In this document: piece by piece, positions 3,720 through 53,597 of the stretch
How the letters are laid out: the number at the start of each line of letters is the position of its first letter
How positions within the stretch are numbered: position 1 is the first letter of the stretch
DNA from: Escherichia coli
GTDB lineage: Bacteria > Pseudomonadota > Gammaproteobacteria > Enterobacterales > Enterobacteriaceae
DNA length: 64,000 bases
Assembly (NCBI RefSeq): GCF_003334315.1
Contig: NZ_QOWR01000005.1
Reading direction: 5' to 3' (one strand)
Notes under the pieces: generated by a model
The model's input: only the letters and a program-made list of their open reading frames with translations
Told to the model about the DNA's origin: nothing
The model's database searches: none
Made by a program: the position numbers and the translations under genes

Positions 3720-3733
3720 ATAAGGTGTTTATT

Positions 3734-3827
3734 GTCGGATGCGGCGCGAACGCCTTATCCGAACTACGCGAAGTTAATCCATAGTATTCGTAGGCCGGAT
3801 AAGACGTGGCAAGCGTCGCATCCGGCA
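3734..3827. repeat. REP/BIME extragenic palindromic elements (two units)
   Basis: gtcggatgcggcgcgaacgccttatccgaactacg and gtaggccggataagacgtggcaagcgtcgcatccggca; canonical REP palindromes between convergent hda and yfgD. Confidence 0.85.
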
Positions 3828-3856
3828 ATGTGCTTCAACTAGCGATGGAGCACATC

Positions 3857-24066: not shown

Positions 24067-24120
<54 letters not shown>

Positions 24121-28735: not shown

Positions 28736-28816
28736 GCCTGATAAGACGCGTGAGCGTCGCATCAGGCATCGTTCACCATTGCCGGATGCGGCGTGAACGC
28801 CTTATCCGGCCTACGG
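28736..28816. repeat. REP/BIME elements (two units)
   Basis: gcctgataagacgcgtgagcgtcgcatcaggc and gccggatgcggcgtgaacgccttatccggcctacgg. Confidence 0.85.
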
Positions 28817-39009: not shown

Positions 39010-40053
39010 ATGCGCTATCGCATTTTCCTTCTCTTTTTTTTCGCTTTGTTGCCGACGTCTTTGGCGTGGGCGGCACCAGCGCAACGGGCGTTTTCCGACT
39101 GGCAGGTCACCTGTAATAACCAAAACTTCTGCGTGGCGCGCAATACGGGCGATCATAATGGACTGGTGATGACCCTGAGCCGCAGCGCCGGGGCGCATAC
39201 CGATGCCGTTTTACGTATTGAGCGCGGCGGGTTGAAGTCGCCGGATGCGTCTGAAGGGGAGATAGCGCCACGGCTGCTGTTAGATGGTGAGCCGTTGGCG
39301 TTAAGTGGTGACAAGTGGCGGATTTCACCATGGTTATTAGTAACCGATGATACGGCAACCATCACCGCGTTTTTGCAGATAATTCAGGAAGGGAAGGCGA
39401 TTACCTTACGCGACGGCAATCAGACCATTTCTCTGAGCGGCTTAAAAGCGGCGTTGTTGTTTATTGATGCTCAGCAAAAGCGCGTTGGCAGTGAAACCGC
39501 CTGGATCAAGAAAGGGGACGAACCGCCGCTCAGCGTACCGCCCGCGCCTGCGCTGAAAGAGGTCGCGGTGGTTAACCCAACGCCGACGCCACTCTCACTC
39601 GAAGAACGCAACGATTTGCTGGATTATGGAAACTGGCGGATGAATGGTCTGCGCTGCTCGCTTGATCCATTGCGTCGTGAGGTGAATGTCACTGCGCTGA
39701 CTGATGATAAAGCGCTGATGATGATTAGCTGTGAGGCAGGGGCCTATAACACCATTGATTTGGCATGGATTGTGTCGCGTAAAAAGCCACTAGCCTCGCG
39801 CCCGGTTCGGTTGCGTTTGCCGTTCAACAACGGGCAGGAGACGAATGAACTGGAACTGATGAACGCAACATTTGATGAGAAATCGCGTGAACTGGTGACC
39901 TTAGCGAAAGGGCGCGGATTAAGCGATTGTGGCATTCAGGCGCGCTGGCGCTTTGACGGTCAGCGTTTTCGCCTGGTGCGTTACGCCGCAGAACCCACCT
40001 GCGATAACTGGCATGGGCCAGACGCCTGGCCCACGTTGTGGATCACCCGTTAA
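39010..40053 (+). CDS. ypfG: DUF1176-family secreted/periplasmic protein, function unknown
   Basis: 347-codon ORF MRYRIFLLFFFALLPTSLAWAAPAQRAFSDWQVTCNNQNFCVARN...; signal peptide with AWA cleavage site. Confidence 0.9.
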   Translation: MRYRIFLLFFFALLPTSLAWAAPAQRAFSDWQVTCNNQNFCVARNTGDHNGLVMTLSRSAGAHTDAVLRIERGGLKSPDASEGEIAPRLLLDGEPLALSGDKWRISPWLLVTDDTATITAFLQIIQEGKAITLRDGNQTISLSGLKAALLFIDAQQKRVGSETAWIKKGDEPPLSVPPAPALKEVAVVNPTPTPLSLEERNDLLDYGNWRMNGLRCSLDPLRREVNVTALTDDKALMMISCEAGAYNTIDLAWIVSRKKPLASRPVRLRLPFNNGQETNELELMNATFDEKSRELVTLAKGRGLSDCGIQARWRFDGQRFRLVRYAAEPTCDNWHGPDAWPTLWITR

Positions 40054-40071
40054 ACAAAATGGCGGGGACAT

Positions 40072-40117
40072 GTAGACCGGATAAGACGCTGTAGGCCGGA
40101 TAAGACGCGTCAGCGTC
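40072..40117. repeat. REP/BIME element between convergent ypfG and tktB
   Basis: gtagaccggataagacgctgtaggccggataagacgcgtcagcgtc. Confidence 0.8.
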
Positions 40118-40179
40118 GCATCCGGCAATCAGCATCCGGCAATCAGCATCCGGCAATCAGCATCCGGCGATCACCATCA
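40118..40179. repeat. 14-bp tandem repeat (about 4.4 copies), REP-derived
   Basis: gcatccggcaatca x3, then gcatccggcgatca, then partial ccatca; last copy overlaps the tktB stop codon (40177-40179). Confidence 0.85.
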
Positions 40180-42180
40180 GGCACCTTTCACTCCCAGCAC
40201 CTTATGCGCTTTTGCCACAATATTCTCGGCGGTAAAGCCAAAGAACGGGAACAGCTTATCCGCCGGAGCAGATTCCCCGTAACCCGTCATCCCGACAATT
40301 GCCCCTTTCAGACCAACATACTTGTACCAGTAATCGGCAATACCTGCTTCCACCGCCACGCGAGCCGCAACGTTAGAAGGCAACACCGACTCCCGATATT
40401 CCTCATCCTGGGCGTCGAAAATATCGGTCGAGGGCAGGGAAACTACGCGTACATTGCGACCTTCTCCCGCTAATTTCTCTGCCGCTTGCAGGGTGATTTC
40501 CATCTCTGAACCGGTGGCAATCAAAATAATATCTGGCTTACCGCCGCTGTCTTTCAGCACATAACCGCCACGAGCAATCTCTTTAACCTGATCCGGCGTA
40601 CGTTCCACCTGGGCCAGATTCTGCCTGGAGAGGATCAGTGCCGTCGGTCCGTTGTGGCGCTCAACCGCCAGCTTCCAGCCCACCGCTGCTTCCACCTGAT
40701 CGCACGGTCGCCAGGTGCTGAAATTTGGCGTTAAGCGCAGGCTGGCCAGTTGCTCAACAGCCTGGTGCGTCGGACCATCTTCGCCCAGGCCAATTGAGTC
40801 GTGGGTATAAACCATAATCTGCCGCGCTTTCATCAGTGCCGCCATCCGCGCGGCGTTACGGGCGTATTCAACAAACATCAGGAACGTCGCGGTATACGGC
40901 ACAAAGCCGCCGTGGTGCGCGATGCCGTTGGCGATAGCGGTCATGCCAAATTCACGCACCCCGTAGTGAATGTAGTTGCCCGCCGGATCTTCCTTCAGCG
41001 AAACAGAACCTTTCCAGATGGTCAGGTTGCTGGGAGCCAGATCCGCCGAACCGCCGAGCAGCTCCGGTAGCATAGGCCCGTAAGCGTTAAGCGTATTTTG
41101 CGAAGCCTTACGGGTAGCGATTTTCGCCGGATTTGCCTGTAACTCATTGATATACTTCTGAGTCGTTTTCTCCCAGTCCTTCGGTAAACCACCGCTCATC
41201 CGACGGGTAAACTCTTCTGCCAGTTGCGGATGAGCCTTTTTATAGGCGGCAAACTTCTCATTCCAGCTCTGCTGCGCTTTTTCGCCTTTTTCGCGGGCAT
41301 CCCAGGCGTGATAAATCTCTTTAGGGATCTCAAATGGCGGATGGTGCCAGCCCAGTTTTTGCCGTGCCAGCGCCACTTCTTCTTCCCCCAGAGGTGCGCC
41401 GTGCGCCTCTTCCTTACCTGCTTTATTCGGCGAACCAAAGCCAATCACCGTACGGCAGATAATCAGCGACGGCTTATCTTTCACGCTTTGCGCTTCAAGG
41501 ATCGCTTCCTTCACCGCCTGCGGATCGTGACCGTCGATTTCATGGATCACATGCCAGTGATAGGCTTCAAAACGTTTTGCCGTATCGTCGGTAAACCAGC
41601 CTTCGGTTTCTCCATCAATCGAAATACCGTTGTGATCGTAAAAACCAATCAGCTTGCCCAGTCCCAGCGTGCCCGCCAGCGAACAGACTTCGTGGGAAAT
41701 ACCTTCCATCAGGCAGCCGTCGCCCATAAACACATAGGTGAAGTGATCGACAATTTCATGATCCGGCTGGTTAAACTGCGCCGCCAGTGTACGCTCTGCT
41801 ATCGCCAGTCCGACGGCGTTCGCCAAACCTTGTCCAAGCGGGCCGGTGGTGGTTTCAACACCTGGCGTATAACCAATCTCCGGGTGGCCTGGGGTTTTCG
41901 AATGCAACTGACGGAAGTTCTTCAGTTCTTCCAGCGGCAGGTCGTAACCGGTCAGATGCAGCAAACTGTAGAGCAGCATCGACGCGTGACCGTTGGAAAG
42001 AATAAAGCGGTCGCGATCATACCAGGTTGGGTCGGTGGGGTTATGTTTAAGAAAATCGTTCCACAGCACTTCGGCAATATCAGCCATGCCCATCGGCGCG
42101 CCGGGATGACCAGAATTGGCTTTTTGTACCGCATCCATACTGAGTGCGCGAATCGCATTGGCAAGGTCATTTCGGGACAT
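40177..42180 (-). CDS. tktB: transketolase 2
   Basis: 667 codons from ATG 42180: [40 protein letters not shown]...; SD ggag upstream; track ORF 42243 trimmed. Confidence 0.96.
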
Positions 42181-52304: not shown

Positions 52305-53481
52305 ATTGCAGACCGCGCTCTTTCAGGCGTTCGATACCCTGAATCTGCAACGGGTAAAAACATTTAGCGTTCCACCGGTGACGCTTTGCGGTCCGGGCGC
52401 GGTGAGCAGTTGCGGGCAGCAAGCGCATACGCGTGGGCTGAAACATCTGTTCGTGATGGCAGACAGCTTTTTGCATCAGGCGGGGATGACCGCCGGGCTG
52501 ACGCGCAGCCTGGCTGTTAAAGGCATCGCCATGACGCTCTGGCCATGTCCGGTGGGCGAACCGTGCATTACCGACGTGTGTGCAGCCGTGGCGCAGTTGC
52601 GTGAGTCAGGCTGTGATGGGGTGATCGCATTTGGCGGCGGCTCGGTGCTGGATGCGGCGAAAGCCGTGGCGTTGCTGGTGACGAACCCCGATAGCACGCT
52701 GGCAGAGATGTCAGAAACCAGCGTTCTGCAACCGCGCTTGCCGCTGATTGCTATTCCAACGACCGCCGGAACCGGCTCTGAAACCACCAATGTAACGGTG
52801 ATTATCGACGCGGTGAGCGGGCGCAAGCAGGTGTTAGCCCATGCCTCGCTGATGCCGGATGTGGCGATCCTCGACGCCGCATTGACCGAAGGTGTGCCGT
52901 CGCATGTCACGGCGATGACCGGCATTGATGCGTTAACCCATGCCATTGAAGCATACAGCGCCCTGAACGCTACACCGTTTACCGACAGCCTGGCGATTGG
53001 TGCCATTGCGATGATTGGCAAATCGCTGCCGAAAGCGGTGGGCTACGGTCACGACCTTGCCGCGCGCGAGAGCATGTTACTGGCTTCATGTATGGCGGGA
53101 ATGGCGTTTTCCAGTGCGGGTCTTGGGTTGTGCCACGCGATGGCGCATCAGCCGGGCGCGGCGCTGCATATTCCGCACGGTCTCGCGAACGCCATGTTGC
53201 TGCCAACGGTGATGGAATTTAACCGGATGGTTTGTCGTGAACGCTTTAGTCAGATTGGTCGGGCACTGCGAACTAAAAAATCCGACGATCGTGACGCTAT
53301 TAACGCGGTAAGTGAGCTGATTGCGGAAGTTGGGATTGGTAAACGACTGGGCGATGTTGGTGCGACATCTGCGCATTACGGCGCATGGGCGCAGGCCGCG
53401 CTGGAAGATATTTGTCTGCGCAGTAACCCGCGTACCGCCAGCCTGGAGCAGATTGTCGGCCTGTACGCAGCGGCGCAATAA
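52294..53481 (+). CDS. eutG: iron-containing alcohol dehydrogenase EutG
   Basis: 395 codons from ATG 52294: MQNELQTALFQAFDTLNLQRVKTFSVPPVTLCGPGAVSSCGQQ...; overlaps eutJ end by 11 nt. Confidence 0.93.
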   Translation: MQNELQTALFQAFDTLNLQRVKTFSVPPVTLCGPGAVSSCGQQAHTRGLKHLFVMADSFLHQAGMTAGLTRSLAVKGIAMTLWPCPVGEPCITDVCAAVAQLRESGCDGVIAFGGGSVLDAAKAVALLVTNPDSTLAEMSETSVLQPRLPLIAIPTTAGTGSETTNVTVIIDAVSGRKQVLAHASLMPDVAILDAALTEGVPSHVTAMTGIDALTHAIEAYSALNATPFTDSLAIGAIAMIGKSLPKAVGYGHDLAARESMLLASCMAGMAFSSAGLGLCHAMAHQPGAALHIPHGLANAMLLPTVMEFNRMVCRERFSQIGRALRTKKSDDRDAINAVSELIAEVGIGKRLGDVGATSAHYGAWAQAALEDICLRSNPRTASLEQIVGLYAAAQ

Positions 53482-53483
53482 AT

Positions 53484-53567
<84 letters not shown>

Positions 53568-53597
53568 ATAAATAACAACTAACAGGGAGTAAAGGCG

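Follow-up and report, generated by a model that had tools for sequence, protein, structure and literature searches.

The REP and BIME sites of E. coli are a familiar source of intergenic polymorphism between strains, as reportedly described by Bachellier et al. in 1997. BIMEs are built of two or more whole REPs in alternating orientation, with defined linker motifs between them, and are amplified as whole REP pairs. A REP requires a conserved GTAG 5′ of a hairpin on one strand, and GTAG plus hairpin is recognised by TnpA_REP, the REP-associated tyrosine transposase (RAYT), which cleaves CT dinucleotides 5′ and 3′ of the REP and cleaves and rejoins single-stranded REP DNA (PMC8266576). A REP that lies <16 nt after a stop codon makes terminating ribosomes stall and reduces expression, according to the account of Liang et al. 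(2015) given in PMC12306157. A separate repeat family, the TMECO sites, is linked with local intergenic variability (PMC4666352).

Here, we describe a 14-bp tandem repeat that abuts the stop codon of tktB in a 64-kb stretch of E. coli DNA (the window, to which all coordinates refer unless another locus is named). Our preferred reading, to which we assign a probability of roughly 0.78, is a REP-derived VNTR whose copy number would change by slipped-strand mispairing, mostly in a neutral way. A search of the available literature library found no paper with the unit sequence and none tying tktB to such a repeat in E. coli; the one match for tktB and "tandem repeat" concerns Dickeya zeae.

A REP palindrome with extra arms between tktB and ypfG

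The minus-strand transketolase ORF ends at 40177 with the C-terminus ...KVLGVKGA (stop), and since the gene order maeB-tal-tkt-ypfG-nudK-aegA matches K-12 in a context comparison, it is the tktB of the talA-tktB locus. Between the stop codons of tktB and ypfG lies a 123-nt spacer that is filled by the repeat region (Table 1). Read in the tktB sense, it reads GCC TGA TGG (TGATCGCCGGATGC)(TGATTGCCGGATGC)x3 GACGC TGAC and continues with GCGTCTTATCCGGCCTACA GCGTCTTATCCGGTCTACA TGTCCCCGCCATTTTGT up to the ypfG stop codon on the other strand. In the ypfG sense, a small hairpin, CCCGUUA...UGGCGGG, is predicted to span the ypfG stop codon (40046-40066, plus strand); the G-run in its 3′ arm has 3 or 4 G depending on the strain, and the bases just before this run vary as well (GCC, GCA or GCT in the tktB sense).

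Table 1. Coordinates of the genes and repeat features at the tktB-ypfG junction of the window.
Feature	Coordinates	Strand	Basis or remark
ypfG (DUF1176 protein)	39010..40053	+	convergent with tktB
19-bp direct repeat, two copies (TGTAGACCGGATAAGACGC, TGTAGGCCGGATAAGACGC)	40071..40108	+	tandem-repeat search; GTAG-side arm of the REP
Sole complete REP: GTAG, GCCGGATAAGACGC, loop GTCA, GCGTCGCATCCGGC	40091..40126	+	predicted hairpin on both strands, inverted repeat
Four complete 14-bp units (three GCATCCGGCAATCA and one GCATCCGGCGATCA, the latter gene-proximal)	40118..40173	-	tandem-repeat search and sequence
Degenerate partial unit CCATCAGGCA (tktB sense tGCCTGATGG)	40174..40183	-	REP-arm-like sequence
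tktB stop codon TGA (TCA on the plus strand)	40177..40179	-	end of ORF
tktB (transketolase 2) CDS	40177..42180	-	end seen directly; start from the 2004-nt RefSeq annotation of orthologues

The initial annotation had described three perfect copies of the unit, a copy with one mismatch and a partial copy carrying the tktB stop. The sequence and Tandem Repeats Finder (40118-40183, period 14, 4.7 copies, 92% matches, score 111) agree with this description, the array ending at 40183 and hence 4 bases past the end coordinate given at the time. On the plus strand, GCATCCGGCAATCA occurs three times, perfectly and head to tail (40118-40159), followed by GCATCCGGCGATCA with its single mismatch (40160-40173) and by CCATCAGGCA as the last, degenerate partial unit (40174-40183), which overlaps both the final Ala codon of tktB and its stop codon; in the tktB sense, the complete units (40118..40173) read TGATCGCCGGATGC and then TGATTGCCGGATGC three times. 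A separate repeat search recovered the identical register, and the score of 111 is the top tandem repeat score in the window. Allowing at most 2 mismatches, the 14-mer occurs 11 times in the window, compared to 0.97 occurrences expected from shuffles, and none of 100 shuffles had 11 or more.

In the tktB sense, the REP has the form GCCGGATGCGACGC-TGAC-GCGTCTTATCCGGCCTAC and the 14-bp unit the form TGATT+GCCGGATGC, where GCCGGATGC is the 5′ arm of the REP; on the plus strand, the 3′ arm of the REP (40118-40126) makes up the first 9 bases of the array. The 14-bp unit combines the outer 5′ arm of the REP with a spacer of 5 nt, and its earlier description as a fragment of the adjacent REP palindrome was correct. 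The core at 40091-40126 belongs to the REP family, with all tested features present. On both strands, GCCGGAUGCGACGC-UGAC-GCGUCUUAUCCGGC is predicted to fold into a hairpin that contains an internal mismatch, as in REP palindromes, which are imperfect, rich in GC, ~35 nt long and interrupted by a mismatch or bulge. The REP tetranucleotide GTAG is found at 40091-40094, directly 5′ of GCCGGATAAG on the plus strand. With 8 occurrences in the window, the GTAG-REP motif far exceeds the expectation of 0.13, and the element is located between two stop codons, so it is extragenic and, on the window-level count, multi-copy. The match to Rfam naRNA4, a family derived from the REP element REP325, stayed below threshold with 39.2 bits (gathering score, 59.5). 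Further REP- or BIME-like elements of the same family lie at 3729-3831, 24074-24090, 28776-28814 and 53479-53571, and two of these are inverted-orientation pairs, as is typical for BIMEs.

The arm opposite the array is duplicated as well. The 19-bp unit TGTAGRCCGGATAAGACGC is a duplicate of the REP 3′ arm (tktB sense) with a GTAG tail, and most strains have two copies of it and some have one; a single 19-mer is present, for example, in 2013C-4830, FDAARGOS_1256 and O157:H16 Santai, and three diverged copies are present in EC42405. In predicted RNA folds, the extra copies of the 5′ arm and the 3′ arm pair with each other, by which the REP would be lengthened into a composite hairpin (z-score of the tktB-sense fold, −1.97).

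Every 14-bp unit opens with TGA in the tktB sense (40118-40176, minus strand). Since 14 cannot be divided by 3, this TGA falls in another frame from one unit to the next, and with at least three units no frame downstream of tktB stays open. Such frame closure is probably incidental.

Copy number and its recurrent change in E. coli

To see whether the repeat is fixed, as the initial annotation had recommended, copy number was compared across E. coli genomes. A query of 381 bp that spans the spacer matched all 5,426 complete genomes, with spans of 333-381 bp among the matches listed. Units were counted with cumulative queries consisting of k units and a tktB anchor, at E-value cut-offs that only full-length matches pass. 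The default E-value was unusable for queries of a REP anchor, n units and a 27-nt tktB anchor, with which partial matches of 41-55 nt already passed as significant and, once joined, simulated full coverage. Furthermore, low-complexity masking by BLAST leaves only 27 unmasked bases in a query of five units and the 27-nt anchor, which is less than the 28-base word and gives a false negative; for the census of at least 5 units, an anchor of 50 nt was used. The query for the 1-unit and stop-loss alleles matched 23 genomes, 11 of them of the stop-loss type. In the query for the stop-loss allele alone, K-12-type alleles match with 2 mismatches, and only the 100%-identity class of 11 genomes was taken.

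Of the 5,426 genomes, 4,315 carry 2 units or more, 220 carry 3 or more, 101 carry 4 or more, 70 carry 5 or more and 6 carry 6 or more; a single genome has 7 (confirmed on the fetched locus). All counts are lower bounds for alleles with extra SNPs, in a genome collection that is biased and clonally redundant (Table 2). With 1 to 7 units among these genomes, the copy number is not fixed.

Table 2. Allele classes of the tktB-ypfG spacer among the 5,426 complete genomes (counts are minima where alleles carry extra SNPs).
Allele class	Genomes	Share
2 units	about 4,095	75.5%
3 units	119	2.2%
4 units (type of the window)	31	0.6%
5 units	64	1.2%
6 units	5	
7 units	1	
REP and exactly 1 unit	12	0.2%
Stop-loss allele	11	0.2%
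BoxC/TMECO element with 1 unit	821	15.1%
Outside the named classes (diverged forms such as locus L006)	267	4.9%

The loci that we fetched included alleles with 1, 2, 3, 4, 5, 6 and 7 units, combined with one or two 19-mers, and some strains had a quite different spacer. The rarer copy numbers follow lineages and not habitats or hosts, and resequenced or close strains carry equal numbers of units. Since 2 units dominate and near-identical resequenced strains agree, the rate of length change appears modest, unlike that of classic hypermutable contingency loci. Assemblers can collapse or expand short tandem repeats, and the repeat number of the window might, in principle, be an assembly artefact. 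However, a complete genome carries the 381-bp stretch without any difference, at least 4 units are carried by as many as 101 genomes, some 64 independent assemblies concur on 5 units, and the 56-bp array is far below the length of sequencing reads. Because the same alleles recur in many independent complete assemblies, an artefact can be dismissed with near certainty.

For the recurrence of changes, 2,300 bp of the flanks in ypfG and tktB were compared among the fetched loci. The window (4 units), CP53 (6 units), 8GC (7 units) and 14EC001 (5 units) differ by 0-3 SNPs in these flanks. K-12 (2 units), KL53 (4 units), RM9088 (5 units) and WG5 (stop-loss) differ by 0 SNPs, as do O145 RM8843 (2 units) and O145:H28 RM12761 (3 units), and RM11911 (1 unit) and O121 RM8352 (3 units) differ by 4 SNPs. 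Unlike copy numbers on identical or nearly identical flanks of 2.3 kb, in at least four backgrounds, indicate that the changes recur, in line with the earlier expectation that the repeat would be prone to copy-number change. The internal patterns of the arrays also vary (among them G-A-A, A-A-A and G-G-A, where the letter is the base at unit position 10), O169:H41 having a variant middle unit, and these distinct patterns reveal separate events. Judged from these sequence comparisons, the array appears to behave as a short VNTR with recurrent change.

A second type of spacer occurs at the same site. In the 821 genomes of this class, a BoxC/TMECO element with CCCTCGCCCCTCTGGGGAGAGGGTTAGGGTGAGGGG stands in place of the REP, and one unit stays by the stop codon. 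The blocks of CCCTCGCCCCTCTGGGGAGAGGGTTAGGGTGAGGGG are arranged as in "TMECO type A mm", and the sequence is one first-loop base off K-12 copy no. 7 (Table 1 of PMC4666352). Among the fetched loci, the BoxC-type spacer was found in two of E. coli (L008 and L009) and in one of Escherichia sp. E1V33 (L029), at the site that corresponds to 40054-40159 of the window. Because the BoxC type is also present in this other Escherichia species, the REP-type and BoxC-type spacers are likely to be old alternatives.

This sharing of both spacer types with L029 suggests old, exchanged alleles, and it bears on the possibility that RecA-dependent unequal crossing-over, or transfer between lineages by homologous recombination, changed the arrays in place of slippage. 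E. coli recombines frequently, and two or more identical units offer at least 28 bp of identity. On the other hand, a single unit of 14 bp is short for RecA-mediated exchange, and imported segments normally carry flanking SNPs, but the four groups show just 0-4 SNPs over 2.3 kb. We therefore regard recombination as an unlikely source of the length changes.

Origin of the partial REP copies

In our model of a slippage-driven VNTR, the starting point would be one ordinary REP between the convergent genes tktB and ypfG. Its outer 5′ arm together with the 5-nt spacer, TGATY-GCCGGATGC in the tktB sense, would have been amplified head to tail, and the opposite arm with its GTAG tail would have been duplicated as the 19-bp unit. 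With two or more identical 14-bp units in place, further units could be gained or lost via slipped-strand mispairing in replication or repair, and the REP hairpin, as well as the pairing of any copy of the 5′ arm with either copy of the 3′ arm, may aid the slippage. In rare cases, slippage at the stop-overlapping unit would remove the TGA and extend TktB by Gly-Cys, the following unit supplying the new TGA. As the array lies after the stop codon, most changes alter just the untranslated spacer between stop codon and hairpin; the copy-number changes are probably neutral or close to it. The present sequence was searched for flanking microhomology from which the first 14-bp or 19-bp duplication could have arisen, and none that is convincing was found; a GATG...GATG pair 14 nt apart fits the degenerate first unit only.

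The involvement of GTAG-tailed arms brings TnpA_REP into consideration, which might have made the partial REP copies by cleaving and rejoining REP DNA. Indeed, the junction of the 19-bp units reads GACGC/TGTAG (the slash marks the junction), with a CT beside GTAG. However, alleles with a single 19-mer read GACATGTAGG and the junction CT is absent there, which shows that the CT is created by the duplication itself. Furthermore, the 14-bp array has 0 CT dinucleotides on the GTAG strand, and gains or losses of one unit at a time on identical flanks agree with the expectation from slippage. For lack of a CT cleavage site in the 14-bp array on that strand, TnpA_REP was rejected as the main explanation, and we consider it highly improbable that the transposase, rather than slippage, produced these copies.

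Other species give an impression of what may have preceded the array. No tandem array of the 14-bp unit was found in 80 ypfG loci of other Enterobacteriaceae species, and the amplification appears, from this comparison, to be specific to E. coli. REPs or two-REP BIMEs fill the tktB-ypfG spacer in Escherichia, Citrobacter, Enterobacter and others, and this site holds true two-REP BIMEs in E. whittamii, in Citrobacter and in a divergent representative of Escherichia. In E. whittamii, GCCTGATGC-CGGTTT-GCCTGATGCGACGC is a 15-nt direct duplication of the arm. In other Enterobacteriaceae, the tktB stop codon is often within a REP arm, or mimics one. In a divergent Escherichia (locus L028) and Citrobacter youngae (locus L039), the final Ala codon of tktB and its TGA belong to the REP 5′ arm itself, GCCTGATG(G)CGACGC; GCC TGA TGCGACGC... 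is within the 5′ stem of the REP (~2244-2340 of these loci, minus strand), so that the gene ends inside the palindrome. Given these arms over the stop codon, the degenerate copy over the E. coli tktB stop can be taken as the remnant of an old REP arm.

Effect on tktB and comparison with known systems

Length changes had been expected to alter the 3′ UTR or terminator of tktB and possibly its last codons. The first expectation holds for the UTR: the distance between the stop codon and the core REP grows in 14-nt steps and amounts to 8, 22, 36, 50, 64, 78 and 92 nt for 1 to 7 units, with 50 nt after the TGA in the window and 22 nt in most E. coli. It does not hold for a terminator, as there is no canonical intrinsic one. 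A scan of 39800-40400 gave no intrinsic terminator on either strand, inspection of the sequence revealed no T-run 3′ of the REP on either strand, and a function of the GC-rich hairpin, which has no U-tract, as an intrinsic (Rho-independent) terminator was rejected.

The expectation of altered last codons is borne out, although rarely. In all fetched alleles with 1 to 7 units, the tkt CDS has 2004 nt, and whole-unit changes hence leave the TktB protein untouched; the exception is the stop-loss allele, found in 11 genomes (E. coli C, NCTC122, C122, WG5 and derivatives, YJ6, ETEC6 and A27). Here, 14 bp are deleted between the stop-overlapping degenerate unit and the first full unit, which changes GCC TGA TGG TGATTGCC GGA TGC TGA to GCC GGA TGC TGA (L024 1639-1701 in E. 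coli WG5, equivalent to 40160-40182 of the window). The resulting CDS has 2010 nt, TktB ends with ...KGAGC (stop), i.e., it is extended by Gly-Cys, and the core REP follows 2 nt after the new stop codon. The gain is limited to two residues because each unit carries a TGA in a shifting frame. That E. coli C and WG5 have a TktB two residues longer through a repeat matters mainly for annotation. In E. coli 2013C-4830 (L005), tkt is marked as a frameshifted pseudogene in RefSeq; as the spacer is a normal 2-unit allele, this frameshift lies outside the repeat.

By changing the distance between stop codon and REP, the copy number could set the output of TktB via ribosome stalling. The spread of distances fits this idea, the core REP being located at 8 nt with 1 unit, at 2 nt in the stop-loss allele and at 22 nt or more with at least 2 units, and the composite helix is predicted to begin ~12 nt past the stop in the allele with 2 units and two 19-mers versus ~22 nt in the 4-unit allele of the window. 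However, 75% of the genomes are in one and the same state, the rarer states track lineages, and 15% of the genomes have no REP at the locus. Only in rare alleles (1 unit and stop-loss) does the core REP lie <16 nt from the stop. In folds of synthetic 1- to 7-unit alleles, the pairing predicted for the 15 nt that follow the stop was similar throughout (0.55-0.8), and the fold z-score in the tktB sense is just −1.97. Taken together, a tuning of TktB output by the array is doubtful. It is also unlikely that amplification of half-REPs by a stop codon is a general, heritable way of setting the stop-to-REP distance. If it were, this distance would set REP-mediated translational down-regulation and the stability of the mRNA 3′ end, and 1-unit lineages (8 nt) and 4- to 7-unit lineages (50-92 nt) would differ in transketolase 2 output.

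In any case, the alleles form a natural series in which the rule of a REP within 15 nt of the stop codon affecting translation can be tested. The practical value of the array is modest: it is an easily typed marker for telling some E. coli lineages apart, with 14-bp steps and a range of 1 to 7 units. The array is also an example of a less familiar form of REP polymorphism, the amplification of half-palindromes in direct orientation. Finally, the tktB-ypfG spacer is not comparable across strains, since it may hold a REP with variable arms, a BoxC/TMECO element or diverged forms.

Among the known systems, REPs and BIMEs are the closest. Like them, the locus has an imperfect, GC-rich palindrome with an internal mismatch and GTAG, is extragenic between convergent genes and has relatives in the window. 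In contrast to a BIME with its whole, alternating REPs, the tktB array consists of half-REP segments in direct orientation around a single complete REP, and the assignment as a BIME was rejected on this ground. The stop-proximal REPs of Liang, Rudd and Deutscher (2015) resemble the locus in that a REP follows the tktB stop, at 8 nt in the 1-unit allele; the REPs to which that rule applies lie within 15 nt of the stop, but the core REP of the window lies at 50 nt. The intrastrand-triplex repeats BoxC/PIT/TMECO occupy the same site in the alternative allele, but they are a separate repeat family that is absent from the window allele and replaces the REP without being part of the array. A contingency (phase-variable) locus, whose repeat sits in a coding region or promoter and turns expression on and off through its copy number, was rejected as well, as the array is 3′ of the stop codon and the CDS is unchanged for 1 to 7 units. 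With MLVA VNTR loci, the array shares head-to-tail units, a copy-number polymorphism between strains and recurrent stepwise change on one haplotype; it differs from them in having few copies (mode 2, maximum 7), a modest apparent rate, its origin from a REP arm and its position next to a stop codon. In sum, the array is an ordinary and presumably neutral length polymorphism and not a new kind of element: a short VNTR, made from one arm of a REP.
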